From assembly GCA_973895155.1 (NCBI GenBank), contig OZ316894.1, forward strand, positions 26,962,340-27,026,339: a stretch of 64,000 nucleotides of DNA, in the 5' to 3' direction. Source of the DNA: Marsupella aquatica. Lineage: Eukaryota > Plantae > Marchantiophyta. The notes below the pieces were generated by a model. The model saw only the letters and a program-made list of their open reading frames with translations, was not told where the DNA came from and did no database searches. Shown piece after piece: positions 30,272-60,602 of the stretch (position 1 is the stretch's first letter; each line of letters begins with the position of its first letter). The position numbers and the translations under genes were made by a program.

Positions 30272-30448
30272 AGCTTCTGCACAACACCCACAACCAAACA
30301 GGGAGAATCAGCACACTAAATTCAAAGTATCAATCAATTTCATGCATATCCAACTATCCTAAACATCATTCCAGGCAGCAATTCCCGTTATGTGACTCTG
30401 TGCAGGTAGTCATCCTCAACCTCATACTTGCCAATCGCCAGCTGTTGC

Positions 30449-35997: not shown

Positions 35998-36001
35998 TTT
36001 T

Positions 36002-36019
36002 TGGCGCTAGATGGAGGGG
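36002..36019 (+). other. Primer binding site, tRNA-Asn-like
   Basis: TGGCGCTAGATGGAGGGG lies 4 nt after the 5' LTR. It is complementary with one mismatch to the plant tRNA-Asn 3' end as I recall it (...CCCCTCCTTCTAGCG-CCA). Confidence 0.7.
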
Positions 36020-36066
36020 GCATTTCTTAAGCCGTGAGATATGAAGTTAGAACGGAAGCGTAGGTA

Positions 36067-38679: not shown

Positions 38680-38963
38680 GACACTAAGGATGACCGTAGG
38701 AAAAGCATAAGGGAAGTAGATGGGTACGACAGTGGACTGGAGTCAGCCGATGAAGTACGTTGGTTAGAATGCCTCACTAACCTAACCGAAGAAGGTGTCT
38801 TTGGACCAGAGGTACCCCCCAGCGGATTATGGCAAGAACCAATGGAAGGTGACTTGGAAGAAGAAGACGAAGAGGTCGAGGACTGCTTTACAATAGAATC
38901 CACCTTTTTAGCTGCAATTCCGGAGGAAGTAAAGGATGTAGACCAATTGGATGAAACGGCTAA

Positions 38964-41900
38964 GTGGGGAGCAGTAGCAGGGACAATGAATTTTCTGCAG
39001 GCGTTGTGGTAGAGCCGGCAGGGTTCACAACGCCATCGATCATCGGCAAGGAACTAAATACCAAGGGATCGGCATACAAGCCGATTACAAGGGCAGAACA
39101 AATTGAGGCCCTATTAGAAGCCGAGAGAGCACAGCGGCCTAACTCTCAGGAGCAAGAGGTGGATGAGATGGACAGACACGATCTAGAGCCAAGGCAGGAA
39201 GGGGAGCCGACCACTAATTCAAAACCGAATAGACCGGTAAGGGGACAATCTATGGACACCAAGGAAGGGACCGACTCGGCTAGTCCAGCCGAAATCCCAG
39301 TTTATGGAGGTATGAGATTAGAGAGACTGGAAGCCGAACTGGACCCGAATTTGAAGAAGCAGATTAATATGATCCAAGCACGGCAATATCGGAAGCTCGA
39401 CTTAGGAGAGGGAAGAGAACTGAACTTAGGGAGAAACCTAGCACCTGAGCTCGAGAAAGAGATTAGTGACTTATTGATTGAATTTCAGGATGTGTTTGCA
39501 TGGAGTCACCAAGATCTAAAGGGAGTAGATCCAACACTAGGGGAACATCGAATTGATCTCATGTTAGGAGCCAAATCATTCCGACAACCAATTCGAAGGA
39601 TGAACCCGAAGTATTCCCTGCTGGTCAAAACAGAAATCGACAAACTAGTGGAAGCTGGATTCATCACTCCAGTCCTGCATTCAGACTGGGTGTCTCCAAT
39701 TGTGATAGTTCCCAAGAAAGCTGGACCCGATGGTAAAACCAAGATCCGGGTTTGTCAGGATTACAGGAAGCTGAATGAAGCAACATTAAAAGACCATTTT
39801 CCTTTACCGTTTACTGATATGGTACTAGACATGGTAGCCAGTCATGAACTATATTCATTCATGGATGGATACTCTGGTTATAACCAAATCAGGATTCGGC
39901 AGGAAGACCAAATCAAGACGGCCTTCATCACGGAATGGGGGATCTATGTCTTCAATCGTATGCCGTTTGGACTCTGCAACGCACCAGCTATGTTCCAACG
40001 ATTAATGGTGAACATTTTTCATGATTACTTGAGAAAGTTCATGGAAATCTTCATTGATGACTTTGCAGTATTCGGGAAGGCATCGAAACATGCTAAATAC
40101 CTCAGGAAAACCTTCATAAGATGTAGAGAGGTGGGTCTCAAGTTACACCCAGATAAATGTTTTTTTGCAGTAACCGAGGGGGTGCTACTAGGTCACAAGG
40201 TATCAAGGAAGGGCATTGAGATTGACAAAGATAAGCTAGCAGTATGGCTAGATATCATGCAACCTAAGAACATAAAGGATGTAAGATCCTTCTTGGGATG
40301 CATTGGTTACTGTCGCCGGTTCATCAAGGATTTTGCCAAGCTAGCTTTACCATTAACCAATATGCTCAAGGCAGGAGCAGACTTCGAACCCACACCCGAA
40401 CGAGTCACAGCGGTGGTAGAATTGAAGCAGATGTTAGTAGAGGCCCCAGTCATGATAGCACCGGACTGGAACAAAGATTTTCATGTTTTTGTAGATGTCT
40501 CGGGCTTCTGTATTGGCTCAGTACTAAGTCAGTTGGATGAGAAAGGAAGGGACCATCCCATATACTTCGCAAGCCGTCAGCTTGCCGATGCCGAACGGAA
40601 CTACTCTACCACGGAAAGAGAAGCATTAGGAGTCATTTATTCTTGTAAAAAGTTTAGGCATTATTTACTAGGGTACAAGGTAATCTTTCATACTGATCAT
40701 GAAAGTTTGAAGTACCTAGTCAATAAGCCGGACCTTACAGGCAGAGTAGCAAGATGGATTTTGCTATTACAGGAGTTTGACTATGAGCTGAGGATCAAGC
40801 CGGGAATCAACGGCACGATTCAAAGATGTTTGGAAAAGAGAGAGGTAAAACGAGTCCTACGGGCCATGCATGGAGAGGAGGCCGGAGGACATTTTGCCCC
40901 AGTAACCACGTCTAAGAAGATATTAAATGCCGGTTACTGGTGGCCCACCTTGCACAAAGATGTCTATCAGTTTATCAAACAATGCGATCCTTGTCAATGA
41001 GCGGGAGGACCAAGGGCGTCCACCAGGCATCCACTGCACCCTATTCTACCTCTGGCACCATTCGAGAAGTGGGGTATTGATTACATTGGACCTCTGAAAC
41101 CACTGACCCACCCTCGACGGAACAAGTACATAATCCCGGCTACGGATTATGCAACTAAATGGGTAGAGGCCAGACCAACAACGAAGGATGATGCAATTAC
41201 TACGGCTAGATTCATGTATGAGCAGATCTTCACCAGGTATGGAGCACCCCTAGAATTAGTTAGTGATAGAGGAACCCATTTTTTGAATGATATAATTAGT
41301 CGTTTAAATGAGCAGTATTTAGTTAAACATAGGCCTACTACTCCCTACCATCCAAAGGCAAACGGGTTGACAGAACGAGCAAACGGAATTATAGGAAAGA
41401 TATTGAACAAGACAGTAGCTCAGAACAAACTCGATTGGGATGATAAATTGTTTGCTGCTGTTTTTGCTTACAATCTTGCCTATAAATCCACTACCGGTCA
41501 TACACCCTTCTTCTTAACCTTTGTACAAGAAGCCCTGGTACCCATGCAACTTGAGATACCGACATTTCAAGTTACAATTGAGGAAAGAGCCTCAGCGGAG
41601 GAGAGCCTAAAGGAGCGAGAATATAGGTTAGAAGCTTTAGAGGAAGTGAGAATGATTTCAGCCGAGAGAGTAGAATATAGACAGAATATCATGAAGCAGC
41701 AGTATGATAAAAGGTTAAAAGTAGTTAGTATTCATACCAGTGATCTTGTGCTACTTTATGGCAGTAGGTATAGTAGGTTTCCAGGAAAGCTTTACACTCG
41801 CTGGTTAGGACCCTTTAGAGTAACCATGATGTTCCCCAATGGCTCCGTACAATTGGCCAACATTACGGGAGAGGTATATCCAGTTCGCATCCATTATGAC

Positions 41901-41984
41901 CGCCTCAAGAAATACTATATGGACGAAGATGAAGTTGTTCGCGAGGACACTTCACAATTAAGTGGGGAGCTATGTGATGCCTAG
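38964..41984 (+). pseudogene. pol: pol: reverse transcriptase, RNase H, integrase
   Basis: WVSPIVIVPKK, DYRKLN, DGYSGYNQI, MPFGLCNAP, FIDDF. RNase H DVSG..IGSVLSQ and YSTTEREALG. Integrase H..H/CDPC, LVSDRGTHF, YHPKANGLTER, WLGPF. TGA at 40998 and an apparent deletion after IKPG (~40805). Confidence 0.96.
41960..41972 (+). other. Polypurine tract
   Basis: AAGTGGGGAGCTA directly precedes the 3' LTR TG and lies inside the last integrase codons. Confidence 0.75.
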
Positions 41985-44900
41985 ACAGGAATCACTCGGC
42001 CGGTTAAGTGGGTAAAGCAGGGAGGCACCCTAGGAACACCTTAGTATAGTGACAAAACAAGGAAAATATAAACAATTAGGGGCAACCATGGAACCCGGGC
42101 CGAGGCCGGAGGTAAGGCTAAGGGTGAAAACCCGATTAGGGTTAGGGCGCGTTAAGCGTCGGCGGCTAGGAAGGATCAACGGGAAGAAGGACCGGCAAAG
42201 GAGAGGGGTAAGGAGCGCTTGCAGGAGATAGTGGCTCATTGGCGAGCACGAACTAGGCAGACGACTACGGGAGGCCAACTACTGTCAGCTGCTTAGGCAA
42301 GCACTCGGGGAGAGAGTAGATACCGACGATCAACCTAAGGAGGGTATGAGCAACGTCAATCAAGCGGCACATTTCTGGGGATGCCTGTTCGAACGGGCAA
42401 CTGAGTACATCAAGACTTACGAGGACGAGGAATCAGAAAGGGCAGCTCGAGAACGGCAGGAGCTCGCTCGATTGTGGGAGCTGCAGAAGACGGCTTTCTT
42501 AGGAGGCGAACTCATCAAGGACGAGTTCCAGTGGACGCCTACTTCCAATCAACTCGATGATCTTCTGTTTTGCAAAGACAGCGTCGTCGGCATCCGAGAG
42601 GCCATCAAGAACTGCAACGACATACACTAGGAATTAAAGGGTAGCACGGAAAGGTGGACCCAGGCAACGGTGCTAGGAGAAACCTCCACGGCAGCAAAGA
42701 TGAAGAGGAAGGGAGCCGTCAACGATGAAGCCACCCCGGCAAAAAGAACGAGGTCGGCGGCACCAAAGAAGCCAGCCGAGCAGCAGAGCAGGAGGCAGGG
42801 AGAAGCCGAAGAGGAGGAGGTCGATCCCATCAAGGCCATTCCAACCAGGGATGACACCTGGAAGGGCTGGACGGCAACCCTACCGGTGGAGGTGCAACTA
42901 CATTTTGCACGGGAGGAGGATGCATGCTTTACGGCCATGCAGACCAAGAATACCAAGGCTTCATGGCCGGATCCGGCTTGGAGGCCTTTGTAAGATTACC
43001 ATGGCTGAAGCCGGAGGTACCGGAGTCAGACCTATTAGAATTCGTGGGGTCATGGGAACCCGAGACCAATTGCACGAGGATATATGGGAAGGATTTCTAT
43101 CTTACTCCCAAGGTAATTGCCGAAGTGTTTGGCCTGCCGATAGGCAATAAGACCAAAGTTGATACCAGGAAGACCTTGCCTAACAAGGAGTTCCGGTCGT
43201 TCCCCGGGCCATCAACGAAGAATGGCTTCTTCCGGAACACCTGCACCAACCCGCACATAGGAGAGATGATCGACTTCTTGCGGGTGACCATGCATTGTAA
43301 CTTGCCGAGGGCAGAGATCGGCAAGGCACAGGTCTATCTGGCAGAAAGGCCAGACCCAAGCCGGGACTACAACGGGTACCTCCTCAACCAATTGAAGAAG
43401 ATCTTAAAGGAGGAGCAGTAGGTAATCGGCATGGGGAGCGTGTCGCGGCTTGGCTATCACATGCCACTGTTGTGCCGGTATGCCAGAGGTCAGACTTTTG
43501 CCCCGGTACTTCCCCTACAGGTAAGGGCACCCGAGGAAGCTCCAACGCCGAGGCCGTTGGCTGAGAAGCCTCAACCACCTGTTAGTCCTACGATCGAGCA
43601 GGTGTTTAGGCCCAGGAAGGAGGACTTGCCGATGCAGCAACCAGGCATGCAGAGTCTGCTGAAACTACTGGAGAAAGAAAAAAAATCGACATCGGCAACA
43701 ACAACGGCAACGGCAACAATGCAGGACACTACTACAGAGGTAGGCCTACACCGGCTCACAAGAGAAAACCCCTTTGCTGGAGACAAGGAGAGAATCAGGC
43801 CGGAATCCAAGCCAGGTGTTCGAATGTACGTGGGAACCTCAAGCTCCGAATCTGAGGTAGAATTGCCTGAAGCTCCTACCGACGAAGAGGAGAGGGAGAA
43901 GCCGGACGTCCAAGAGGTAGAGGAGGCAGTGGAGGACTGCAGCCATGATAATTCCGGCTATGGGTCGGACCATCACGTTCCAGGAGTAAGGACCTGTGGC
44001 CGGTTTGTCCCCACACTTCCAAGGGTAGTGCGAGGGGACCCCAACCAGCAGAGTAGCCCTGAGTCTCCCCCACCAGGATGTTGCTCCCCCGAGCTTCGAC
44101 GGCATAAAACAGACGGTGCAGGAATTTCAGGAGCGAATCAAGCAGGAGGAGGAGGCCGCCCTGGCTAAGGAAAAGGATTTACCAGGAGGAGATTGGCCGG
44201 AGGACATCAGGCGGCTAGCCGAAAAAGGAAGCAAACCTCTAGCCACGATTGAAGAGATCCGCAGGACGGCTTGGGAGCAGAGGCCACGATGGGCGATGCC
44301 GATCACTTCTACTTACTCCACCTACGCTAAGAATAGAGCCATGGAGTATGGTGAGATGTGTGGGGAACTTGCGCTCGGCATCTTTGGAGAGGAGTTGGAG
44401 GTAGGACCCTTTTTCCATAGGGAGCAGTTGGAGAAGCACCAATTAGAAGAAGCGGTGGCTTTAGAGAGAAGCAAGAAGGACGAGGTCATTCGGCGGCTTA
44501 GGAGGATGGAAGCCGAGATTGAAGATCTAAGGGCGGCCAAGAAAGCCCAAGATGAACTGCGGATTAAACGACATGAGCTGAACATCATGCAGGGGCAGTT
44601 GGACACCGCGCAGGCTGATAATCAGAATATCAAGGATAAACTGACTCAGACGCAGGAAGAGTTGGCCGACACGATCAAAGAGAGGGAGAAGTGGAAGCAA
44701 GAGCTGAAGAATACAGAGGAGGCCCACATAACAGCCAACAGCCGGGCCATGGCGGAGACCCAAAGAAAGGAATGGGCGTTGAAAGGGGAGCTCGAGAAAA
44801 TCCGCGGAGCCCTTGAGCAGAAGGAGGCCGAGTTAGGGAAATCCTATCAAGGGATTATGGCGCTGCAGCAGGAGCTTGCGTCCCTGACGGCCAGCTTCAA

Positions 44901-46632
44901 GGCCGACCTAAGGGAGAAGGACGAGATGCTCGAACAGACTTACGCCAAGATGAACCAGATGGAGTCTGTCATCATTGCAGAGCTCGACAAGGAGCTAAGA
45001 GCAACCCGGGAGGAGAGGGCTACCTTGAAGAAGGAATTGGAGGAAGCCCACAGGGAGCAGGAGGAGGCCAAAAACGAGCTGGAGGGGGCACGTAAGGACC
45101 TGGATGAAACCCAAGAGGAGTTGGAGGAAATCACGAGGAAGATGGAGAACCTACAGCGGCGGGCCGACAACCAAACAGAGCGGCTGAAGAAACAAGCCGC
45201 AGTATTTAAATGCTTAGCTGCAGCAGGTCCATCTCCCGTTGGGACAAACCAGTTACCAGGGGTGGTAATTGCCGAAGGACAAGCCGCGCCACCTGCACCA
45301 GTGCCGGGAGTAAGTGGGAAGGGGAAGGGACCAGCTGCCGAGCCACCAACGAAGAAGAAGCGGAAACCTTCAGGGTCAAGGAGTAATACGACTTCACAGG
45401 CCGTGGTGATCAAGGAGGTAGACCCAGCACCGACCCCAGACAGGGTCACGGCTAAGGATCCAACTACCCTAGGGGAAGGGGAGGCCGAAGCCAAGGGAGT
45501 GGCTGAAGCCGAAGCCGTGGGAGTGGCTGAGGCCGAAGCCGTGGGTATTGCCGAGGCCGGTGTCGAGGCTGAAGCCAAAGGTGGACCCAGTCAGGCCGAG
45601 GGAGAGTTGACTCGGTCAAGGGCAGGTAATCTGTCAGTAGGCGGGCCAACGGTAGTGGCTGAGGAGGAAGTGTTGGGGGCGTCCATTGAGGATCCACCAC
45701 CGGTGTCGTGACGGTGCAAGGGCGCCGTTCCTTTTAGGGAGGGCGGACGTGGAGGGAGGAGACGTGAGTGGGCAGGGCGGGCGCGGATCTCCACGTTTAG
45801 GATTAGGATTAGAACCAGGAGCGGCCCTGACACTTAGCTTAGTGGGATTGCGGTTCCACTGGTAGGAGCAACACTTGTGCTCCTGCCTTACTGTACATAG
45901 GTAGATTCGGGCAAGTAGATTACTGTCAGGTAGATTAGGCTTACGATGCAAAGAATGGCGGATCCACTACCAGGATAAGTACCTGGGCAGCGGGGAGCTC
46001 AGGGCCTCTTCTTTAGCAAGTTTTTAGTTTGCACCAGCCGGGCTGGGATCAAGTAGTACGAGAAGCTCTCGGTTAGTCATACAGTGACCCTTGTGTATAT
46101 TCATGTTTCCTCATGCCTAAGAGCTGAATAGAGTTGGCCTCACGGCTTAGTTCGCAGAACTTGTGTATGAGATGTACTGTTTGTATGGCAAGTGCATGGT
46201 ATGACTCAGTCAGAATGAGTCATTTTGCTATTTGTGTGTCGCATTAACTTGTGTGAAGAGTGCCCACATCAACAGAAGGAAGGAAAGTAAGCAGGGGAGT
46301 GAGAGTTGGATGTGTCAAGCTGAGAGAGGTCTTAGCGGCTTAACCAAGCCTATTGGGGATCATTCCGGCGGCGGAATCCAAACATACCTAACAAGACGGA
46401 GGGGAAGATAGGGGAAGACAGGGGAAGGCCTATATTAGGCCGGCTACGTATCTCATGACCCGATGAAGGATCTGTCCAGTATATGTGTGTAAAATGTTAA
46501 TAGTAGTAGTAGAAGGTTAGCAGCGTCCCATGCCGCTAAGCCGCGGAAACGGCCTCGCCAAGCACGAAACCTGCGGGAATCGGCTTGAGCTGGGGGGTTT
46601 CTTGGGTTTAGGGAGCCATGGGACGCACCACA
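41973..46632 (+). repeat. 3' LTR (4660 bp)
   Basis: TGTGATGCCTAGAC...GGGACGCACCACA, a direct repeat of the 5' LTR. Confidence 0.96.
42088..45711 (+). pseudogene. LTR-encoded ORF (3' LTR copy)
   Basis: Same protein. Stops at 42229, 42628 and 43419; frameshifts at ~42951 and ~44076. Confidence 0.85.
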
Positions 46633-46759
46633 CAACTCCTCCGTTGTCCTCACATGTACTGCCTCTGCACGTACATCCATGACCATATCAGAGTCCAATC
46701 ATGTATAGTCATAGACACAGGTGCCAGGTGCGAGACCGGTGTGAGATGTCCTCATCTTA

Positions 46760-47329
46760 CTACCACATCAAATACGGATACCAATCCTGTTGTCGATGCC
46801 ACTCAGCCCTGAGGTACTCAGGCATGTACATTAAGTCATCAAGGTCTAAACCCTGCTCATGCCATCGTGGTCTTCGATCCGTGCCTACAAGCAGTGGCAG
46901 CAGTGCCCTCCATGGTGCACATGTTGCTACCAAGTCCCTCCACTGGGTACTAATTAGTCTATATTTGCAGATATCTTGTGCGCCAGACACCACAAGAACC
47001 CTCGGCCAGACATGTGTAAGAACTATATCATCTGCCAAATCAGGCAACAAGGAACCACCTACAGCATCGTGCTTGTCTAACTCATCTGCTGAAAAGTAAA
47101 TGTCCTCTTCCGACTGTGCATCCTCATTCACCACAGCATTCACAACACATCCAAGGTCTGCAGGCATTATCTCGGATGGAGCTACACTCTGTCTGGTTAC
47201 CAATCCACACAAGTAAGCCCAAGCAGTAGCCATGCACGATGCAACCCGTAGGAGGACCCTACATAGGGCCTGACGGTCTGGAAGAGGCAGCATACCCACC
47301 AAAGTCTTCAGCCAAACAGAGCCCAGCAA
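46760..47329 (-). CDS. F-box-like cargo ORF in CACTA-2, probably decayed
   Basis: LLPDLADDIVLTHVWPRV......ICKYRLISTQWRDLV fits the F-box pattern LP.LPDDI...IL.R.....R.VCK.WR.L. Confidence 0.65.
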   Translation of the reverse strand: MLGSVWLKTLVGMLPLPDRQALCRVLLRVASCMATAWAYLCGLVTRQSVAPSEIMPADLGCVVNAVVNEDAQSEEDIYFSADELDKHDAVGGSLLPDLADDIVLTHVWPRVLVVSGAQDICKYRLISTQWRDLVATCAPWRALLPLLVGTDRRPRWHEQGLDLDDLMYMPEYLRAEWHRQQDWYPYLMW

Positions 47330-47469
47330 GTAGATTCACAGTCACACCCCACGCAGCAGGAAACAACAATCACTTCAACTGCGACCAACCATGACAAGAT
47401 GAGTTAGTTCAAGGATCACATTTATTACAAAATTGTGTTTTATACAAAAATATGAGGGACTCCTACTCC

Positions 47470-48225
47470 TCACTCTCTCCCACCTTTGCTAAGCATACAT
47501 CTCCGCTGAATCTTGGAGGGCCAGGCCTCAAAAATATCAAAGTCCCAAGCATTCTGTCGCTTCCCTCTAGCTACTGATTCCAGAAGCCAATCAGGGGAAA
47601 GCACCCAAAGATTGTTGTTCATGACAAAATCACGCACTGTTGTCTTAAAGAATTTTCTGCATATTTTCATGTATGACAGACCTACAACATGAGTGGAGGT
47701 TTCTGTTAGACTCTCCTCCACTGTCCCACCTAGCTCAACAACTATAGACTTGTACAGTCTGCACTTAGTCTCCCCAATTCCTTCTTCTGCAAATACCACA
47801 CTGAACCCCTTCATAATGGTATTTCTCTCCTTGCCATGCTCATTCAATATAGCATCTGCACGCATAGGATGGTGTCCTATGTTGACAACAGGTCCATATT
47901 GGACAGAAGCAAAGTTGGGTTTCTCTGCCGCTGCTTCATAGGCTTCCTTTTCAGCCAAAGCCTCTGCAGTGGCCTCCTCACTCTCCCACAACTCATATTG
48001 CTCAGTACTCTGTACACACCTATGTTTAACAGAATCGGTCAGCCAAGAGACTTCAACTACTTTTAGACCTTGGTTGGTAATGGCAGAAACAATGAAGGAC
48101 CATGACCACTTGTTCATCACATCCAGCCATGTCCCCGCAACAACATGTGTAGTCTGTGGAGTGATGTCCTTGACTTCAGTCCCATGGAACTCTGAGAATC
48201 GTTTTTGTACGATTGGCCAACTCAC
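47470..48225 (-). CDS. Tandem BRCT protein, similar to the plant DNA polymerase lambda N-terminal BRCT; start uncertain
   Basis: Two units: ITPQTTHVVA...VVEVSWLTDSV and MKGFSVVFAEEGI...IVVELGGTVEESLTETSTHVVG...VLSPDWLLESVARGKR. Confidence 0.8.
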   Translation of the reverse strand: MSWPIVQKRFSEFHGTEVKDITPQTTHVVAGTWLDVMNKWSWSFIVSAITNQGLKVVEVSWLTDSVKHRCVQSTEQYELWESEEATAEALAEKEAYEAAAEKPNFASVQYGPVVNIGHHPMRADAILNEHGKERNTIMKGFSVVFAEEGIGETKCRLYKSIVVELGGTVEESLTETSTHVVGLSYMKICRKFFKTTVRDFVMNNNLWVLSPDWLLESVARGKRQNAWDFDIFEAWPSKIQRRCMLSKGGRE

Positions 48226-48911
48226 TTGGGTGAACCCTAAACCCTAAACCCTAAGCTTTGATTCCAGCCAACAGAGGCGGGTGGTCAACCTTTGTACGTT
48301 TCCTAGAGGCCATGTACACACGGGCCACCTAATCACTGCAGACCGGAAGATAATGCGTTCACCTGATAATCGGAGGGCCCTTAAAATGCTGCGTTTATAA
48401 CTTGGTCCAGTCCAGTCGTCTGGTGAGTCTCTGCTCCGATTCCAAATGGGAGAAATATTGGGACAAACGTACTAGACACCTGCAAGCATGCACCTCATAG
48501 TTTGAATATGTGCCTTCACAATATTGAAGGTGACAAGTGCAATTGTTTTGTGATGCCACATACAGATGTTGTAAATGGGCAGACATTCAATGAGAATACA
48601 AAATGTTGGTACACTTTAAGGGAATTCTCGCAAATTAAATAGCCTTGTAACTTATATGCTCATAATGAGAAGTCCTGATTTAATTTAAGCATTGTCATGT
48701 AAGTCGTGATCAAAATGATTGCAGAGTTAAAAAAGTTCCTAGAAGGCTTAAGGGCAGTTTTTGAAGGCATGTACCCAGGAACAAGTAATGAACTTAGGGT
48801 ACTTGTTGCCTAAGCATCCTCTCCTACAGAGGTCCTTCTTCTCAAAATTGGAATGTCTGCAATCTCCAAGGTATCCACATCAGGTGCACTATGCATGTAT
48901 ATTATTCAGGT

Positions 48912-49592
48912 TCAAAGCCAAGAAATGTGATCTCTCATGGGAGTGTGCAAAGTAGGATCTATGGCATGGCGATGACAATAGAAGATCCATCGATCAACAC
49001 CATGTGCAGAGTGATCATAGATGTGTCTGTCACAAGCATAGCCTTCTGCTTGACGCTCCTTCAAACAATGAAAGTGCCACATGGTGGGACACCTAACACA
49101 GTGGACTATGTCCACCCAGAAATCTTCATCGTGCTGACCACATGCCTTGCACTTATGAAGTGGGCAAGCTGTGGCAAGATCGGGAAAACATGAAAAACAA
49201 AAGAACCTCACACAATATCTGTCAGGGCATTTCCTAACAAGTGGTGGAGCATCAACAGAGCCCTCATAAGACCCCAACTTCCCACACTGTGCACACTTAG
49301 CCTGCTTCTCCAAACAATCAGTGCACATCCAGCCTCCCTGGTGTGCTGACGGGAGGCCCACCCCTGGACAGTTGTTTTCTGCAGCAAGGTCAGACTCCGG
49401 GTTGAGGTGGAAATGCCTCATGCAAGGGCCCTCACATATGGCTAAGCCACCACCATCGTCACAAATGGCACAACAATGAGCTGCCTTCTGGAAAATCTGA
49501 CTTGCGGAGAAGTTACTACCATCTGGCCCAACTACACCTGTGTTGCTCACCTCTGTCCCCCGCTTCTTGGCTCGGATTTTAGGGCGTGCCAT
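48912..49592 (-). CDS. Stand-alone EDM2/NSD-type composite PHD finger protein (226 aa)
   Basis: CAICDDGG.L..CEGPCMRHFH, CTDC....KCAQCGKLGS, CPLHKC..C, CVRCP..WH..CL, FYCHRHAIDPTLHTPMRDH follow the EDM2 PHD cluster in order. Intact ORF with a basic N-terminus and a splice-acceptor-like site just before the ATG. Confidence 0.88.
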   Translation of the reverse strand: MARPKIRAKKRGTEVSNTGVVGPDGSNFSASQIFQKAAHCCAICDDGGGLAICEGPCMRHFHLNPESDLAAENNCPGVGLPSAHQGGWMCTDCLEKQAKCAQCGKLGSYEGSVDAPPLVRKCPDRYCVRFFCFSCFPDLATACPLHKCKACGQHDEDFWVDIVHCVRCPTMWHFHCLKERQAEGYACDRHIYDHSAHGVDRWIFYCHRHAIDPTLHTPMRDHISWL

Positions 49593-50261
49593 GCCTACGC
49601 ATGAGACAGATAGTACAATTTAGCAGAGTGCACGGACAATACAATTTAGTGCAGTGTACAAAAAGTACAGTGTAGCATATAGACTAGAGTGGCAATTGCT
49701 ACTGCAATGAAATGTTCACACACATGTGCAGAGTAGACATACTTTTTGGTTTGTTGAGCCCACACTAAAAACTGATCCCCTCGTACAATAGCTCCACCTA
49801 CACCTCAATTTTGTGGCTATGATTCACCAAAGGAGATCTGCAACAAGATTTAATGCATTTGAATCACATATAACAGTCGTGACATGTAAAACAGGCATTT
49901 TTTGAACAGGATTGGTATCAAGCACTGTGATCAGGGTTGTAATTTATACATCCTAAATAGGCTATGATAGTGAATGAGACAAATAAGTTAGGCAGAAATC
50001 ACTTTTTCCAGGTTATCACATGGCCCATTAATTCCAGTCTTTGAAAGGAGACTTTTAAGTGAGCTTGCTAGCCTCTTAAATTAGGATATTGTACTTAGTG
50101 CAGCCATAATAGGATAAGTTATGTACTGTTGACCCTAAACCCTGGACCCAAAATTGGTCATAATTCAAAATCTTAAGTAAATATCCTCTCTGTTCAAGTC
50201 AAAGTGTTAAGTTATAGGTCAATGGTCTCTGGTTTGTGCATGCGGTGTGACAAGTGGTCCT

Positions 50262-50711
50262 CTAGAGCGTGTGATCCAAACATGTGTAGACACCAAAGTG
50301 ACCGGTGGTGGGGTCTGGGAGGGCAGGACAAGTGACATCGCCAGGCACACTGCAGGATGGCGAGTGGTTCCAGATGATACATTGTGCTCTGTGAAAAAAC
50401 CGACATCCAAGAGAACGGTCATCCAACTCTAGGCCAGAAGCCCTATAGGCAGGACAGTCATATTGGCAACTGTGCACACACCCTTGGGCCCTAATTTGTG
50501 GCGGGTCATGTATGAGAGACAGAAATACCAAGGATGTTGGGAAGGGTGGAGAAGCAGGTACAGGCCGGCTGTAGTTGTTCCTGGCAACAACTGGGTACTC
50601 AAAGTACCATGCAGACTGGGCTGGAAGGATCCCAAGTCTGACATACTCAAGGCGCAACATCTCTGCCTTGCGTGCAAGCCGCACATGTTCAGCGTTGCGG
50701 GTCCTCACCAT
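50262..50711 (-). CDS. Small Cys/His-rich hypothetical cargo protein
   Basis: 149-aa ATG-started ORF on the same strand as neighbouring cargo genes. CVHSCQYDC, CRFFHRAQC, HSPSC...C...H....C..H. Confidence 0.45.
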   Translation of the reverse strand: MVRTRNAEHVRLARKAEMLRLEYVRLGILPAQSAWYFEYPVVARNNYSRPVPASPPFPTSLVFLSLIHDPPQIRAQGCVHSCQYDCPAYRASGLELDDRSLGCRFFHRAQCIIWNHSPSCSVPGDVTCPALPDPTTGHFGVYTCLDHTL

Positions 50712-53700
50712 AAGTGTTGCTTTTGTGGAGATGTCGTGTGTTCACGTCCTCTGATAAGCACCTTCGATCAGCAAGGTGAGCAGGAGCTGTACTTGCCTCA
50801 CCAACAGCAACCAACCTTAAATTATCAGTTCCCACTCACTGTGTCATTCCATTGGTTCCAGCTAGGGGTCACAGTGTAAACATAGCATGAAACACTCCTA
50901 ATCAACTTGCTTACAAACTACAATATCCAGAAAGAGTGAAAGTCTCACCCTCCAGTGAGCAGCAGAGAGGTAGTTCACTAGATGTGTTGATGTGCAGTTA
51001 AACCTCCACTATTGCTTACTTCTGGTGTATGCTGCTCAGAAGAAGACATATTAGTAGCAGCAAATTGCAAATAATGGCCATAAGCAAACCGTGAGAGTTT
51101 GCAGAATGCTACGACAAATCCATCACAGCAGTGCTCCACAGGAATGAAACCAAGCAAAATTTGGTGACCTCGGCCAATGACAAGGCCAATGTAGTGAACA
51201 ATCCTTGACCGATCAGGATATGGATTGGAATTACAATTAGTCAGCTCTTCTTCTTTGTTTTCTAACTCTGGGGGAAATGAGCATGACCAGGGAATTCTTT
51301 GAGAAATAGAAGTGCACAGGGAAAATGAAATTGGCTCATTCAGCTGCGCAAGACCGGCCATTGCAGCAAACTTGGACAGTTGTTCCGCAATACATAAAAT
51401 ACCCTGACTTACATGCAATCGATACAATCTGCTTCTGTTGGCTGTCCTATAGCTCACGGTAGTGCCGTTGGGATAGGGTAAGTGAATATTGCCATAGCTG
51501 AAGCACATTGAGCTTGCAGCAAGAAGTGAAGGAGCATGGCCAAAAGCAGAAAAGACAGACAGGTTTTACAAGAAGAAACTAACAACCGCCAATCTGCTCA
51601 AATCCGCTGCATAGATCAAACCCTCCAAACTACACAGCCCTCCTTTGAAAACAATCCAATGTGCTTTGGCTGGTGGATGACAAGGACTGGGAGAAGAGGA
51701 AACGTCTACACAATCAATCCCAATGACGGGACATAGAGACCAGGCACAGAGAGGATTTGTGCTTAGACAAAAACCACAAATTGTAGCATGGGCGCCATAG
51801 CATTGGGCGGCAATGGGAAGAATTACATCAAATGAGTGGACAGAGAATGAACAGTCCGGTTATAGGCAAACAGCGACTGATGCCCTGATGCAATGAAACA
51901 CGCATTGACATAGCGGAGGGACATAAAAACTACATAAGCCAACTTACTGACCTTTTAAGGCCCACAATTTCAAGGGGAGGGACAAAGACAGCAATAACAG
52001 ACGCAGAGACAAAGTTGTACTCTGTCAATTGAGTAGGCAAGTGGGTGGGTGAAGATCAACAACCAATGTAGCAGCGCAACCAGAGTAGCAACAAAGAAGC
52101 AGGTTGCCCTCAGTCTCCTATTTTTCAAGCAGCTCGTGCTCGCGGTCAATCTCCTATTCTGCAAGCAGCTCACGCTCGTCCCTCTTGTTCTGCAAGCAGG
52201 TCATTCTTGTCGGCGATGGTGCAAGCTGTCCTCCTAAACTCTGACACTCAAAATGAAAAGACCAAGCACCTCCAATCTGTTTGATCCCTTCCGCAAGCAG
52301 CCGAGCGGCAGACGATAATGTAGGGATCAAGAACCAAGTGCCAGGCGGACATTGCACAAAATGAGGACCGGGGGCAGAGACAAAATCTACCGAAATCTAC
52401 CGAAATCTACTTCTTGGGGTCCAGCCCACGGATGGACATCATGCAAGGTGGTCAAAAATGGTAAGTGCAATTGTTGGAGAGCTGTACTCGCGATTACTAA
52501 CGGTGCATCCACAAAATGCGTCATCAAGTTGTCAGTGCGGCCACAACAATTTTGACAGTCTCAGGATCACAGGTCCACAAACAAGTTGCAAATGAAGACA
52601 CACAACGTCCAGGAGGGAAAGTCCGCAACACTAACCCTTTGTAAAGCCCCCGAGCTTACCTTCTAGCTGCCGACGCAAAGAGAAAACCTACTCAGACACT
52701 AAAGCAACCCTAAACTCAAAGTCTCACCTTAGCGCAACAACTCCTGGATTGGATTCAGCTAGCTCAGGCTCAATGAAGCATGTCGCCTCGGGCTCTCCGG
52801 ATCCTCCCAAGGCAGCAAACAAGTTAGGGTCCACGGTCCTTGTACCTTCACCGCACCGTTGTGTCCTTCCCAATGCCTCCTCTGTAGTTGCGTCTTGTCT
52901 GCAACTCTACAGCTCCCCGTGTTGCTCTGCCGCACTTAGTTATATTCCAACGCCCGATCGTGACCAAAAAGAGTTTTCTCCTGCTGGACAGCACTAGGCA
53001 TTTGTTCAATCTCTTGATCACGCGTAAGCAGCTACAGGTATGAATCACTCAGTTGGCAGCTCAATACGCTTACAGCAAGAGGGCGCAATAGGTAGAAGCT
53101 CGCGCTACCTAGACCAGCACAAGGACAAAGCATTAACATTGAAACTGTACCATGGAGCTGGAGAAAACCACAGAGTAATTGAAGCCTAACAATACCCTTC
53201 TTAGCTCCCGACTCCAAACTCTCGGCTCCCAGTTTGCAAGAACAAGCACTATGAAAATATGGATTCCCACATTGACTGTGTCCGCAGAACAGATGCAACC
53301 CGCATGCAACTTCACCAGCTCAACGGCAGCTTGACAACTGAAGGACCTCCCAATGAGCCTCACGGCCTCCCGATGCTCGTTATGGGTGCAGCAAAAGGGT
53401 CTATACCACAACTGTGACCGAGATTGTCACCCAAAACCTTGAAGAAACCCCAACCTCCGACTCCTCAAACTCCGACAAGCTCCTCACGAACGTTGCAGCA
53501 GCCACAACCTTCTTCGCCCTACCAGCCAAAAACTAAATGTCCCTAAAGGAGATCGAGCAGGAATGCAGGTCTATGAGTAGACTGCAAGCGCAAGGTTAGA
53601 TCACTGCAACTGCCTGAACACTGCTCCTCGAGAGCATAAACAAGCACATAACGCGAGGGAAGTTCACTCCGCAATGGTCGCAAAAAGTGGGCAACACTGA

Positions 53701-55172
53701 AAGGAAAACCCTACGTAAAACCCCGAACACTCCACCCCTCACGTTCTAAGTTCAATGACAATGGCGAAAACTCCAAAGAGACTCCCAAAGTGAAGTTTAG
53801 TGCCTGAAACCGAATTAGGGGAAGCCACTCAGCCTTACCGTTTGAGTGAGCCGTTGAGTGTCACCCAAAGTGGGACAAAGCTACAAAGTGTTACTGCATG
53901 GCCAACTTAGGCAATGAATGGTCATATTTGCACATACATGGTCGGTAGTGACATTTTATTGCACGCCGTAATCAGGATTAAGGTTGCCCAACATTATATC
54001 CGGTCCTAAAATGCAATATTCCCGGTGCAAGAATGTGACCTAGCTCTAATGTATGAAAAAGGACCGGTACAAATCTACCTTTGTGCATCTTGACCTTTTA
54101 TAGATGGATTTAGTAATGGCCAAGAATATCTTGACCATCCCTCCATGGTCCAACCTCCATGAACCCCACTTCATTAAACCCAAAACCTTTTTGGTCACAA
54201 ATAAGGACATTTAATGAGTTATGCCCCTTGCTATCACCCTCTTTATAGATTTATTTTTTTGTTTGAAATTTTACATTTATTCCGCGTGAACCCCACGGAT
54301 GGGGGAACCAGTAGGCCAAATGGCATCATAAAACCTCAACACCCAAAGGAGGCAATAACAAAGAGTTACTCAACCAGGGTCATCAGATCAGGCAAAGATT
54401 GCGAAGCCGTTCTTCTAGTGGTCCATGCAACAAGTAACAACTAGGGAATAAGCACTAGAAGGCGCAGTAGGTCAGCATAGTGTAAGTGTAAAGTGTCAAA
54501 GCATTGTCTAGTACTAAATTAATCCACCTGATTAGTAAGAAGGGGGTGTATACTGTAATGGGAAAAAGAAAAAAAAACCAAGGCATGAGCAAGGGCCACC
54601 AAGAGTGGTGCAGCTATAAGCTATAGGGATTGAACACAATGCGGGGGGGCAGTGGCACTATGTATGAGGAAATCACGGGAGTATCGGTGTCAAATGAGTC
54701 GACAAAACTCCCAGATAGCCACACAGTATAAATCAATCTCACAGAAGGCTGCCATCAATGGAGGAAACAATTTGACACGACCCACATCTGAGAGTGTGAA
54801 TTCGCTCGATCTCCAGCAGTTCTTTGGCACTCGATAGACGTCGGTGCTTTCGGCTCAAAGATGAAGGAGAATTACCCCTCCTCAACATAGAGTGAACATT
54901 ACCCATGATGTGCTAGACTATTCACCCTTCACAAAGTAGCAAGGTTACTTCTCATAGTCTTTTAGTGAACCATAAAACTCTCATAGTCTTTTCTAGTCTT
55001 CAACAAAACCGGTGCAATGGGTGCGAGTTGTTTTAAGTATGGAAAAAGGACTTAGTGGGCATAGTCCTATAAGGTATGGTCTAAATTGCCCCGGTTTCTA
55101 CTAGTGGGTTTATGCACACCCTTAAGCAACATTACAGTAGAAAAACTATAATAGCACCTCAGAGAAATGTAC

Positions 55173-55546
55173 CGTGAGGTTGGGGAACCCTGGAATAGCG
55201 GAGTCCTGGATTCAGTTTCCAATTGGTCCCAATCATCTTCGTCTAGTTCCATGACAGGAGGGTCACCCTCAGGTACATGAGGTCCAAAGTGGATGTCCAC
55301 AAGGTGCGCAAAAGCATCCTCTTCAACAATAGGTGCATCCATATCATCCTCTACATCTTCATCAAAATCGTCATCATGTGCATCATGGTACTCATTCACA
55401 TCCTCGTCCACATCCTCATCCTCATGCACATGATCACTCTCAACATCTTCGTCGTCAGAAAAAGATAATGTGGCTCGCATGTGGAACGAACGGGCTGACT
55501 CCGTCATCATCGATGGATGAGGTGTAGGTGTTATATTTGGACCATC
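55173..55546 (-). CDS. CACTA-1 transposase acidic exon
   Basis: Acceptor TTGCATAG|GAT at 55547. D/E-rich, ends ESRTPLFQGSPTSR at donor GTAC (55172), in frame with the exon starting at 26172. Confidence 0.85.
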
Positions 55547-55689
55547 CTATGCAAGACGTCAATATTAGATAAGGTCATCCCCAAATTAGACAATGTGTTC
55601 CCAATAGTGCATGAGGTAATGAAGGTCAAAGAATCCAATATAAGTCTCACTCTGAGTAATGAATAAGTGATCAATAACATATATAATCT

Positions 55690-56505
55690 TCAATGCCAAT
55701 CATAGTCTACAAATATCTCATCCCCTGCTCGAATGGTGCGGGTGGCATGTGTCAGGATGTAGTGACTGCATCCCAAGGGCAAACGAGGGTGACTTTGGTC
55801 ATGGTACTCATGCCACTCAGCGTTGGGGCGGAACCCCAAACGCCGACACCCCACTGTGCTATTGATGTAACCCGCCAAGTTTCCAGTACGAGGGGGGTAA
55901 CCATCCATCTGAGTATACCTAGGGTCCAACTTTAGTGACATGCCATACCGACCAAAGGTTGGGCATTGGCGAGACAAGATACGCCATCTATGGGCCGAAT
56001 ACTTTGGCCCATAAAATGGAATCAACTCGGGCAGGTCCTCAGGTGCACAACCTTCCGGCACCACAATATCCACGAGTGCAAATAATCCAAGACCTACGTT
56101 GTCTCCCAATGTGGATGGGAGGAGGACCCATGGCCTATCCCAAACTACAATAGGCTCCCGAACAAGCAGGACCATAGGGAGGCCAAACTGGGTTGGGAAT
56201 GAGTCCTTTATGATGTCCAAGGCTCTCCCTCTTAACTCTCTTGGTGCTCGGGAAAAAGAGGCATCAAGAAAAGGACAGTGTGGCGGCACCGTCCTAGGGG
56301 TACGAGACGTAATGGACCGAGGTCTAGTGGTGACCTCTACTCCCCTCTCAATAGGGTGACTCTGAATGACCCTCCTCCTCCTATCAAAAACACGGTCTAT
56401 TGCCCTTAACGTGGCATCGAGTGCTGATGGGGGAACTAGTGCTGTGAGCGCGCGATGTGCAACCTGTCTCATGTGGTCCAAGGGCGGAGAGACCACACAC
56501 AAAAT
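55690..56505 (-). CDS. SET-domain exon (putative lysine methyltransferase) within the CACTA-1 transposase gene
   Basis: PSTLGDNVGLGLFA, FYG, GNLAGYINS, PNAE, ATRTIRAGDEIFVDY are canonical SET motifs. Open frame; acceptor AAACAG|ATT at 56506 after a pyrimidine tract. Confidence 0.88.
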   Translation of the reverse strand: MLCVVSPPLDHMRQVAHRALTALVPPSALDATLRAIDRVFDRRRRVIQSHPIERGVEVTTRPRSITSRTPRTVPPHCPFLDASFSRAPRELRGRALDIIKDSFPTQFGLPMVLLVREPIVVWDRPWVLLPSTLGDNVGLGLFALVDIVVPEGCAPEDLPELIPFYGPKYSAHRWRILSRQCPTFGRYGMSLKLDPRYTQMDGYPPRTGNLAGYINSTVGCRRLGFRPNAEWHEYHDQSHPRLPLGCSHYILTHATRTIRAGDEIFVDYDWH

Positions 56506-56652
56506 CTGTTTCACATGTGAACAAGAGAACTTCAGAAATCAGGGAAAAAACCATTCCAACTAAACACTCAAGAAACTCAAGAAACCCAAACATGTTATAT
56601 TCAAAAATGGACTTAATGAATTGAATAGTGTCAATAAAGGTTTATGAATTAC

Positions 56653-57171
56653 CTGATGTGTCGGGGGTACGTAACGGCCGTGGAGGCCTAAATGGCTAAG
56701 GACAGTGGTCCTCTCGTGGGAGACGACGCCCTTGCATCTACTACATGGGCAGGGCATCTTTCGGACTGGGCCAATCCCCTGAAGGGCAGCCATGGCCTCT
56801 CCAAACCTATCCTCATCCTCCGGCATGGGTGATTGGTGTCGGGGTGTGTGGTCATCAGAGGGAGACCTGGACCGGCGGTGGCGGTGGGACTGTCGATGGG
56901 ACCTCCTATGCCTTCGTCGCTCCCGATGTCGATGATCCCTAGATCGGTACTCCCTATCTGAAGACTGATCCCAACTCCTCTCAGACGAATGGTGCCTGCT
57001 CCTATCAGATGATAAGTCCCTCCTCCTCTTGGTCGAGTGGTATCTCGACCTCGCAGGTGAGTGCTCCCTCCTCCTCTCCCTCCCCCTATCATGAGAGCGG
57101 TACCTGTCTCGGTGATGTGCACCTCCATCATAGCGATCATCAGATGACCACTCCGATGAGCACGAGGCCAT
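56653..57171 (-). CDS. CACTA-1 first coding exon: RS/RH-rich region + transposase-associated zinc-binding domain
   Basis: ATG at 57171, then RSRSPS-type repeats and MPCPCSRCK........VLSHLGLHG (Transpos_assoc pattern CPC..C...HL...G). Donor CAG|GTAATT at 56652. Confidence 0.85.
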
Positions 57172-57689
57172 GGCCTGCAATAGTACACACACATATACAC
57201 GCAAACTTGCAAACTCAGCCTTGGAAATGGAACGTCGGGACCACTATAGTACCACAATATTTACGTCAAGTAAAACAAAGTACTTTCACTTTACGTCGCC
57301 GAGAACACAATACACGATGTATTTCTTAAACCCTACGTCATGTACCGTACCCCACACGACGTTACAGTAAACCCTACCTTTTAACGGTGTACAGAACAAC
57401 GTTTAAATGAAAACATTGTCTAGCACAACGTATTACTAATCGATCAATTAGGGCATCATCGTGAAAAATGACGTAAATAGACAGAGAACGGCGGAAACAC
57501 ATTGTTGCGAACTCTGCCGCATTCTATTCGGAAAATACCGGGGCATAGTGTCGAATGTGAGTCATTCGACCATTCCGCACACACCTCACCCCACATCTAG
57601 TGTTCTGTTCTGTTCGTGGCTCTAGTGAAGCTCTAGTGAAGCTCTAATCTTTGTGAAGGTCATCTACATTTGCTCCAAGTCTCGCCTCA

Positions 57690-59854
57690 ATGTCACGTCC
57701 AGCTTATCTGCCCCTCAGTATCAACTTTGATGTTGTGAAAGTTTCCATGGAAGACCCAGAGGAGGTGGAGAAGGTTCGAACAGCTTTGCGGTCAGCACAT
57801 TCACTGATTGATGCTTTCAATCAGAGTTGGCAATTCATGGGAGGAACTGGGACGAAGGAGTCACGATTTTTGGAATACCTTCAGAACATAGAAGAGAACG
57901 CTCCAGCATCCGACGTTGAGCCCGACATTCAAGCACCAGAGTTCTTGCGCGACCTTCCGGGGGCATCACTTGATCCTCTTGCTTCCTTCCCGCCCTTGAT
58001 GGACTCAGTCTGGGACTATCCCTCGTTCTCTGGGATGGAGCCGGATTCACAACCACCCTGTGTTACTCCCATCAAGAGCCAAGTGAGGATTCAGAGATAT
58101 GAGCCTGATGATTCAAGTACAGAGTTGCGGACACACAGAAGGCGACATCATTCCCGTTCTTTGAGTAGCAATAGTAGCATTGAGAGGAGACAAAAAAGGG
58201 GAAGGGAAAGGAGCGCAGAGAAAGAGACAGCCACAGCACACACAAGAGAAAAAGGGCTGAACGAGATTCGAGGGTGGACAGAGATAGGAGAGGTCGAAGG
58301 TCACATCGACATTCACATTCAATCGGAGGAGGTCATCGGCGAGCTTCTCCTCACCAAACCGTTGCTACTCCTGCCAGCAAAGAACAACTGCCGGTCATCA
58401 GCCTGGCTGCTTTTGATGCGAAGCCAGAGGTGCTTGATGAGAAGGCGCTAACGAATCGAGTGCAGGTCTGCTGTACGAAACACTGCCCTGGGTGGACGAC
58501 TTGGAAGGACCTCATGCACAATACAAAGAAGTTTCAAGTACTCCTCAATGACATACAGGCCGGATTCAAGAATGGCAGAGAGATTGATTTTCGACACATC
58601 AGGCAGAAGATTGTGAGTTTCCTTGCTGACAGAAGATTCAGGTGGAGAAGCAAGGTCCGAGCAATGAAATGCGAGAAGACAGGGCAGTACCGTAAGCCTG
58701 AAGGGATGGCCGAGTCGGACTTCAACTTGATCGTGTCTGAACTTGAAGCACCCCCAGACACCCCAGTAGGAAAACGAGTGCACATGGGTGACAAAGTCAC
58801 TGCAGCTCGAAAGAATAGTGGACGCCTTCTAGTAACCAATTTCTGGGGGCAAGGAGGATGGCGAGGGTTCCTCGCAACCTACGTAAGTCTCGGACCCAAC
58901 TTCCATGTTTTCATTTCGCTGCTCCGGTGTAAACCATAGTGTAACGTCGAGATTTTGAAATTACGTCGCCTGATTCATTCATAACGTCATCCATAACAAC
59001 GTTAACTTTGATTTGTAACTTCATCTGAGACGTACCTTAGGAAGAACGTCGTCCTTGAGACGTTACATGTACCGCTTTAGTGAAAACGTCATTAGAGCGA
59101 CGTTAACTAGATATGCAACGCATGGAACGACGTTAGCACCGATGCTGAGAGGGTTGAATACGTGCTTAGGAACGACGTTCTTTTGCTTTCTCGCAGAAAC
59201 GCAAGTTTGGTGTCGATGCTGAGCCGTCGGAGGAGGAGCGGCTGTACTCGAAACGGTATGGCCCGGCAGCGCTATGGGCCAAGTTGGCCTCAGTCCCGGA
59301 GGATCACCGGGTAAGAGCTAAAGTGATTGCTAGGTTGTAGTTGACTTTAGGCCTACTCTGTGACATTAACTGACCAGAATGCTATCATGCAGGTGGAGGA
59401 TTGGACTCCTCCGGAGGGCTTGGTTGCACGGGCCATCCCTGAGGATCACTTGCCAGCCAGGGTACCGCCCGAGGAGGGTTTGCAGGAGGAGGCTCACGTA
59501 GATTGCGGGCAGGAGGAGGCAGAGACTCATGGGGGGCGTACTAGTGGCCAAGGCCGGAGGGAGAGAGAGAGAGCCAAGGGAGGGAGAGAGAGGGAGATAG
59601 GGAGAGATAGGTCAGATAGACAGAGGGGGAGGGAGAGGGAGAGGAGGAGGAGGGATGACACTAGGCGACCTCCACACAGTAAGGGGAGTAGGCCAGTGAC
59701 TACTCATAGGGCTGCAACACAGGCAGATACGTTGTCCCCCAGTACCACTAGCTTAGAGGAGGATGACTCCAGGTACGAGTTGCGCCCGAGAGGCGTACAA
59801 CCCACTTCTACACGCAGGTCTGGACGTGATACCAGGCGGACTGAGCGTGACTAG
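57690..59854 (+). pseudogene. CACTA-1 TnpA-like gene, divergently oriented; exons ~57690-58882, 59197-59310, 59393-59854; one frameshift in exon 1
   Basis: Transposase_24-like features: TTWKDL, IVSFLADRRFRWRSKV, KPEGMAESDFNLIV, AARKN....FWGQGGW. In-phase GT-AG junctions. Confidence 0.65.
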
Positions 59855-60602
59855 GGTATAGCCTATTTTACTTGCCCGACTTCATCCTCCATTTTGTACA
59901 TATTTGGCCCATAACAATATTATCTAATACGACACTTTTCGCGGATTACAACGTCTATACCATATGCATATTGAATGTGTATCCCTAAACCCCAACTGCC
60001 TACCCAAATAATGCTCACCCCATTGTAACCCTAGCTTAAGTGTGTTTATAACCTCCAATAAGGTTGTATGGCAGGGTCCGACATAATATACGGGGCGTCG
60101 TTCATTCATAAAGTTACCAAGCATCTCACAAGGTATGACCCAGACGTAGTCTTCCACTTTCACACAACGTCGTTCATGACATCGATATATGATAACAACG
60201 TCTTATCACACCACGTAAACCAATGAACGAATTCACATTACATCAAACGGAACGGTGTCCCAGACATCGTTACAAACACTGACGTTGTCTTATACGAGGG
60301 AGTCAACGTCGTCAATCACGACGTTTTGTTTGTATTAACGTCACTCCGTGCGACGTTCAATGGACATGGAAATCTACATTAGCCCAGTACTCTAACGATG
60401 CATAGGACGTCGTGCACACAAAGAACCACGTTGGCGGTGTGGCAATGTGCGTTGTGTGAGACGACGTAAGAAACCACGTCAATATAGACGTCCAGAACGT
60501 TGCCAATTTTACCTTGGGGATTCCGTGTTTCCGTTTAGAGTTTCATACGTCGAGATTAGCCTGTTGTGAGGCAACGTTAAGTTGAGTCAAAATGTAGTTG
60601 TG

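Follow-up and report, generated by a model that had tools for sequence, protein, structure and literature searches.

An EDM2-Type PHD-Only Gene inside a CACTA Transposon of the Liverwort Marsupella aquatica: A Candidate Accessory Chromatin Adaptor

Nested Transposons at the Locus

The window, a stretch of 64,000 nucleotides from Marsupella aquatica, was identified as a stack of nested transposons (Table 1). An inner CACTA/EnSpm element contains three open reading frames (ORFs), coding for PHD, BRCT and F-box-like proteins, and a transposase region of which the 3' half is present. Its terminal inverted repeats, CACTA...TAGTG, match at 17 of 17 positions, and the 4-bp repeat GGTT is present on both sides, versus 3 bp at the outer element; for the wider CMCT group, the accessible part of the source gives target duplications of 2-5 bp (PMC12730594). 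In the inner transposase region, DUF4218 was detected above the Pfam cut-off, DUF4216 and Transposase_24 were detected below it, and the Transposase_21 part is absent. The element thereby carries the TnpD/TnpA-type coding sequence by which CACTA/EnSpm elements are recognized. The original prediction had placed the PHD ORF inside a transposon, which was borne out by the perfect termini and GGTT repeats that flank it.

The same prediction placed this transposon in an intron. A GT..AG intron is indeed present; however, it belongs to the dead transposase gene of an outer EnSpm element and not to a host gene. When the insert is left out and the intron spliced, the exons of the outer transposase join in a single reading that runs on into Transposase_21 and contains one internal stop. 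The outer element contains the Pfam domains Transposase_21, DUF4218 and Transpos_assoc, and is itself inserted in the tail of an ORF that belongs to a third repeat. A host-gene intron was considered and rejected, since all ORFs annotated in the window are of the transposon type and the intron reads as transposase. No host exon was found in the window, where ORFs below 100 amino acids were included within 46633-55106. Because the intron lies in the transposase gene of another transposon, the nesting is no sign of a function of the EDM2/AAE type at host introns.

Inside the inner element, a Ty3/Gypsy element separates the transposase remnant from the PHD, tandem-BRCT and F-box-like ORFs, which all lie to its right on the transposase strand. 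A 5-bp target duplication, CACAC, is present at a solo LTR of the same Gypsy family (about 8931-13596). In other copies, the sequence to the left of 46633 is different. We read the Gypsy element as the mark of a deletion or recombination junction in the inner CACTA element, where the deletion would have taken part of the inner transposase. Since the Gypsy junction is devoid of a target duplication, no continuous native sequence links the PHD module to the transposase half.

Additional frames were noted in the surrounding repeats. The outer EnSpm element contains a frame of 282 residues (55690-56538, minus strand) with a SET domain (E 6e-5, above the Pfam cut-off), located between the Transpos_assoc exon and the transposase exons. 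The outer element is thereby the second of the CACTA type to carry a chromatin gene, here for a possible writer. In the third repeat, one ORF (60809-61480, minus strand) has a faint N6/N4 DNA-methylase match (E 0.057), and another (62206-63492, minus strand) belongs to no family. Related palindromic repeats were located at 18811-19073 and near 61920-62020. The Gypsy-family LTRs (31687-35997, 41973-46632 and 8931-13596; 4.3-4.7 kb each) carry long coiled-coil ORFs of up to 835 amino acids with no clear family, and their contig depth is very high. A frame of 650 residues (16454-18406, plus strand) consists of seven 189-bp (63-amino-acid) tandem repeats, is coiled-coil-like and has no credible family.

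Table 1. Positions of the features identified in the window.
Feature	Position	Strand	Characteristics
Outer EnSpm element	20706..60602	.	13-bp TIR beginning CACAA; 3-bp target duplication CTA
GT..AG intron, outer transposase gene	26173..55172	-	29,000 nt with insert, 152 nt without
Inner CACTA/EnSpm element	26263..55106	-	perfect 17-bp TIR pair; 4-bp direct repeat GGTT
Remnant transposase region, inner element	28904..31686	-	DUF4218, DUF4216, weak Transposase_24
Ty3/Gypsy element	31687..46632	+	LTRs 99.4% alike; without target duplication
Weak F-box-like ORF	46760..47335	-	Pfam F-box E 0.1, below cut-off; lead only
Tandem-BRCT ORF	47470..48313	-	basic N-terminus; Pfam BRCT E 8e-15
Intact PHD ORF	48912..49592	-	basic N-terminus; three EDM2/NSD-type PHD fingers; TPxRDH-ISWL end
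Splice-acceptor-like site	49595..49625	-	CTAAAT, pyrimidine-rich stretch, TAG; ends 2 nt 5' of PHD ATG

The PHD Open Reading Frame

The PHD ORF is a single uninterrupted frame from ATG to TGA, coding for a protein of 226 amino acids (P0001). The N-terminus, MARPKIRAKKRG, has K or R at 6 of its 12 residues and is a likely NLS. The C-terminus is TPMRDHISWL, directly followed by the stop codon. An intact ORF with a basic N-terminus, covering the composite PHD through the TPxRDH motif, had been predicted and is thus present.

In the alignment, all 24 expected Cys and His zinc ligands were found, including the terminal His. By alignment, C41/C44/C53/C57/H62/C75/C90/C93 are assigned to finger 1, C100/C103/C122/C127/C132/C135/C143/H146 to finger 2 and C148/C151/C165/C168/H173/C176/C206/H209 to finger 3. 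With three units, 24 ligands and the terminal His, P0001 belongs to the PHD cassettes of the EDM2/NSD type; the Pfam NSD-type PHD models matched with E-values of 1e-5 and 3e-4, both under the curated cut-off. An AlphaFold2 model from an alignment of 78 rows reached a mean pLDDT of 86.5, with about 90 from residue 31 onward and a disordered basic N-terminus. With 6 rows, the mean pLDDT was 55.2 and the fold search from that model was uninformative. For the 78-row model, Foldseek identified local PHD/PZP matches only (best E 5e-5, query TM 0.2-0.3), and no EDM2 PHD was among the matches of the search against solved structures. The best match in the ESM Atlas was a streptophyte NSD-type PHD cluster with a score of 0.93.

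The acceptor-like 3' splice site upstream of the ATG makes an N-terminal coding extension of the ORF possible, and an additional upstream coding exon is a possibility. Five majority variants were identified in the ORF (2 silent, 3 conservative), which are too few for a selection test.

A Family of Short PHD-Only Proteins

A phmmer search identified five relatives of P0001 among 90 candidates, with 217-245 amino acids and 38-81% identity. By hmmsearch, 548 proteins were found at E <=0.001, the best 150 of which were listed; among the matches listed, short unnamed ORFs came on top, followed by EDM2-type proteins. A word-based search for longer relatives had found none among 342 candidates, a false negative, since hmmsearch then recovered the EDM2 proteins. 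Ten short relatives are Logan, JGI or ENA records, none with a functional name; for the nine unnamed ones no NCBI or UniRef record was found (0 of 9), and the tenth is named just "hypothetical protein".

In a tree of 80 of the 156 rows, in which long-branch rows were kept, 14 stand-alone rows formed one clade (support 100/92) with a long stem and 36-81% identity. Across 12 members (37-81% identity), 17 zinc ligands are invariant and five more are at least 90% conserved; these 17 ligands are among 28 invariant columns. The distance from the terminal motif to the end of the protein is 3-11 residues in the eight members in which the motif was found, versus 867 in EDM2, and 13 of 20 members carry M[AT]R among their N-terminal 30 residues. 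It had been considered that the ORF might be one exon of a longer host-like gene. The stop position is common to the family, so the C-terminus is not an exon boundary and the ORF is not an internal exon. Judged from this comparison of sequences, the PHD ORF appears to be an old gene kept by selection, since the members of its clade have a common start and stop at such low identities.

It could be argued that the ORF is passive cargo of the Pack-CACTA kind, a piece of the host that was captured and amplified but does nothing for the element. CACTA elements are described to capture host DNA in the accessible text of PMC13317346, and several relatives are broken (L001, P0008, P0012 and P0014). 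The family members were taken from gene callers, so that broken copies, of which L001 is one, are under-counted. Neutral cargo should show high similarity to a host fragment and no constraint, and neither was found: identity to any host protein is 29-36%, the stem branch is long and family-specific residues are invariant. The conservation of ligands, start and stop among members as little as 36% alike is unexpected for neutral cargo, which makes this explanation very improbable.

Relationship to EDM2

For EDM2, binding of H3K9me2 and the promotion of full-length transcripts are described in the accessible parts of three sources (PMC7529245, PMC11265718, PMC5364540); further sources on EDM2 biology, likewise accessible in part, are PMC3632883 and PMC3776765. 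P0001 aligned to residues 225-432 of Arabidopsis EDM2 (P0163, EDM2_ARATH) with 29% identity over 211 columns and a pairwise E-value of 5e-25. No match to the other EDM2 regions was found in this pairwise alignment, in agreement with the prediction that none of them is present. Among the traits of an EDM2 ortholog, P0001 has the composite PHD with the TPxRDH end and is devoid of the methyltransferase-like ELP domain, the RFD-like N-terminus and the acidic and proline-rich regions.

With an NSD-like outgroup, the clade was sister to six liverwort EDM2-like proteins with a C-terminal PHD, with moderate support (80/88). Grouping of the clade with 14 EDM2-proper rows was rejected by an AU test on 36 chosen rows (p 0.020), with groups that were defined after the 80-row tree and a long stem that brings a long-branch caveat. 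The WxH motif before the last ligand pair was found in 5 of the 6 liverwort paralogs and in 9 of 20 family members, several of them fragments, and in 1 of 72 methyltransferase-bearing EDM2 proteins. In PHD2, the His ligand is replaced by Cys in all 13 scored family members, versus His in 68 of 71 scored EDM2 proteins, and the helix insertion of EDM2 is lost.

The 12 residues before PHD1 contain on average 1.3 D or E in the family (19 of 20 members, range 0-2) and 5.7 in EDM2 (64 of 72 proteins, range 3-8). In PHD fingers of the AIRE type, acidic residues before the finger contact the H3 N-terminus. Since this acidic stretch is lost, the binding specificity of the family may differ from that of EDM2; by analogy, the loss may weaken or change H3 binding.

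The Marchantia protein P0057 is a PHD-only host protein of 280 amino acids, so that a reader-only composition is not unique to the transposon. In the mosses Ceratodon and Sphagnum, EDM2-like proteins with a terminal PHD were also observed (P0043, P0075, P0108), and a further short PHD-only clade was located among the seed-plant EDM2 proteins (P0031, P0033, P0039, P0055). From these sequences, the loss of the methyltransferase-like half seems to be recurrent in EDM2-like proteins.

The designation of P0001 as an EDM2 mimic can therefore be retained in part. The homology to the composite PHD stands; against it, the grouping with EDM2-proper is rejected, the acidic stretch is absent and PHD-only host proteins exist. 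A true mimic would bind the H3K9me2 tail, compete with EDM2 or join an AAE-like complex, and shift poly(A) choice in transcripts of transposons or of introns containing them. Besides the homology, such a role would be in line with the binding of H3K9me2 and promotion of full-length transcripts by EDM2 itself, as given in the accessible parts of PMC7529245, PMC11265718 and PMC5364540, and the predicted long multi-ORF transcript of the element could profit from read-through. However, the AU test speaks against it within its long-branch caveat, as do the loss of the acidic stretch and of the PHD2 helix insertion, the exchange of His for Cys in PHD2 and the identification of the intron as a transposase intron. 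We consider a true mimic distinctly unlikely.

Neighbouring ORFs and Copies of the Module

The tandem-BRCT ORF is frameshifted in the window at three TTTAGGG repeats (48230-48256, near 48240), and an intact homolog (P0179, 61%) was identified. At this site, most contigs of the runs X1, X4 and X5 differ by small insertions. TTTAGGG is the plant telomere repeat, and the repeats breaking the frame resemble telomere-type repair of a break. A short distance upstream of their basic starts, the PHD ORF and the BRCT ORF each show an acceptor-like AG, and donor-like sites are present in the 5' arm of the inner element; together, these sites would imply alternative splicing from one promoter. An ORF of 149 amino acids (50262-50711, minus strand), starting with MVRTRN, lies in the deepest part of the module and is a possible fourth accessory gene. 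No credible family was found for this ORF or for the one at 50978-51508.

The observed/expected CpG ratio is 0.28 in the PHD ORF; taken over the three ORFs (PHD, BRCT and F-box-like) it spans 0.26-0.38, and the inner transposase half has 0.30. By comparison, ratios of 0.54-0.71 were obtained for the right arm, the SET ORF and the Gypsy element. The depletion in the PHD ORF and the inner transposase half is as in long-methylated transposon DNA.

Between 46600 and 55300, 254-3024 contigs with many variants were placed per run, in four runs. In X1, the depth of near-identical contigs was about 1770 over the BRCT/F-box part versus 420-450 over the right arm, the module being about four times deeper than this arm, and 120-160 over the outer element. 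The contrast was smaller in X5 (14-20 versus 6), where the module was only 2-3 times deeper than the outer element. Contig depth is not copy number, by the tool's own warning, so that depth was taken as a sign of a repeated module only; it suggests that the PHD module is present in many copies. The location of the PHD ORF within CACTA ends was demonstrated for the copy in the window only, and no second long locus was found. The related locus L001 (1867 bp, one of 147 pattern matches) has an in-frame stop near the start and ends with DHISWL, and no transposase or BRCT neighbour was found over its 1867 bp. Viral contigs were not confirmed as carriers in any of 252 pattern matches.

The higher depth over about 46633-51800 compared to the right arm, and a left boundary hidden by the Gypsy junction, would also suit a PHD-BRCT-F-box module that does not belong to the CACTA element itself but is another mobile element inserted in its arm. 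However, the depth falls gradually between 50965 and 52100, and no shared loose end was found at the right edge of the module among the rows listed (657 further loose-end rows exist). No second TIR pair around the module was found in a search for one; a 15-bp inverted match (46777/49919) is within chance. Moreover, one contig of X3 joins 47336 to 52054, a weak junction with a 25-letter side, and strand and CpG depletion match those of the inner transposase half. That the depth declines gradually toward the arm is better explained by diverged CACTA subfamilies than by a nested insertion with sharp borders. A separate nested element, partly compatible with a role as adaptor or in targeting, appears quite improbable.

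A Possible Role as Accessory Chromatin Adaptor

The PHD ORF is proposed to code for an accessory chromatin adaptor of the transposon, most likely favouring the element's own expression as an anti-silencing factor; on the present sequence comparisons, we give this proposal about an even chance. The gene would go back to an old capture of an EDM2-like gene of the bryophyte type, namely a liverwort-type paralog in which the PHD was already C-terminal. Its transcript would start at the element's 5' promoter and be spliced, with a predicted leader from the 5' arm entering at the acceptor before the PHD ATG. The protein would be imported into the nucleus by its basic N-terminus and would bind H3 tails or nucleosomes, where the mark that is read need not be H3K9me2. 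The adaptor would probably help the element to remain transcribed in silenced chromatin. In the most speculative step, this binding to H3 tails or nucleosomes would shield the chromatin of the element from host silencing readers or titrate these readers.

Precedents for such genes are found in other transposons. In the accessible text of PMC13547354, VANC of MuDR is thought to derive from a captured host chromatin factor (MAIN-like proteins), and that of PMC12730594 reports TET/JBP genes carried by fungal EnSpm elements.

The same proteins might instead serve in targeting or repair. BRCT pairs are readers of phosphopeptides, and targeting by chromodomains or the RAG2 PHD is known. The PHD and tandem-BRCT proteins would anchor the transposase at certain types of chromatin or at damage-marked nucleosomes, and would choose insertion sites or manage excision breaks, without an anti-silencing role. 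Both ORFs have the same design, with an acceptor-like site, an ATG, a basic N-terminus and reader domains only, and the inner element is nested in sequence consisting of transposons only, inside other elements. However, in a genome rich in repeats, elements will come to lie inside one another by chance, and we regard this alternative as rather unlikely.

The proposal of an accessory adaptor can be extended to a bryophyte CACTA family with a toolkit of three separately spliced chromatin genes, for an EDM2-derived triple-PHD histone reader, a phospho-reader with tandem BRCT and an F-box adaptor, acting as a counter-silencing or insertion-steering system. This extension is doubtful. If true, the three products would together locate chromatin that is silenced or damaged, and would either eliminate a silencing factor of the host or guide insertion; the toolkit would provide counter-silencing based on histone marks, unlike the sequence-specific VANC.

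To our knowledge, few plant transposon accessory genes acting on chromatin are known, the best known being the sequence-specific VANC, and an old transposon-borne family of EDM2-type reader-only proteins would suggest a second route, via histone marks. The PHD-only protein further provides a small, natural probe of the binding partners of the composite EDM2 PHD. In addition, the finding draws attention to EDM2-like host genes with a terminal PHD in liverworts and mosses, which are unstudied.

Comparison with Known Systems

Chromatin-related accessory genes in DNA transposons are of a known kind. In the literature searched, which did not extend to Repbase-type annotations or subscription journals, no EDM2-type PHD gene carried by a transposon was found, nor a CACTA element in which an EDM2-type triple PHD forms a gene of its own beside BRCT and F-box-like ORFs.

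Among host proteins, Arabidopsis EDM2, which forms AAE with ASI1/IBM2 and AIPP1/EDM3, is similar to P0001 in the composite PHD of three units, the C-terminal C..H ligands and TPxRDH, at 29% identity. The RFD-like N-terminus, acidic stretch, ELP domain and proline-rich tail of EDM2 are missing in P0001, which in addition has a shorter PHD2, is intronless, lies inside a transposon and belongs to a separate clade. The liverwort EDM2-like proteins with a terminal PHD (P0013, P0016, P0018, P0028, P0030 and P0057; MARPO_0005s0286 and MARPO_0172s0021 from Marchantia, and proteins from Calypogeia and Riccia) end 5-49 residues past RDH, like the family, and share the R[HY]FH, RCPxxW and WxH motifs. Unlike the family, they are encoded by annotated host genes, have mostly long N-termini and keep the His in PHD2, with identities of 29-36%. 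The PHD1-3 cassette of NSD1/2/3 is of the same domain class, as seen from the phmmer match to NSD2 659-794 (E 0.005), the Pfam NSD-type PHD models and local Foldseek matches to NSD PHD-C5HCH. However, P0001 is without SET or PWWP, and its TPxRDH tail is of the EDM2 type.

Among transposons, VANC of VANDAL/MuDR is likewise an accessory gene from a captured host chromatin factor, according to the accessible text of PMC13547354. VANC is described as sequence-specific in the accessible part of PMC10398659, whereas the PHD protein is a predicted histone reader in a CACTA element. The TET/JBP genes of fungal EnSpm elements and the PHD-bearing CR1 and Gypsy elements are also chromatin-related extras in transposons, as far as the accessible parts of PMC12730594 and PMC9940879 describe them. 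There, however, TET/JBP is an enzyme, and the PHDs of CR1 and Gypsy are parts of larger transposon proteins and not a separate gene of the EDM2-type triple-PHD kind.
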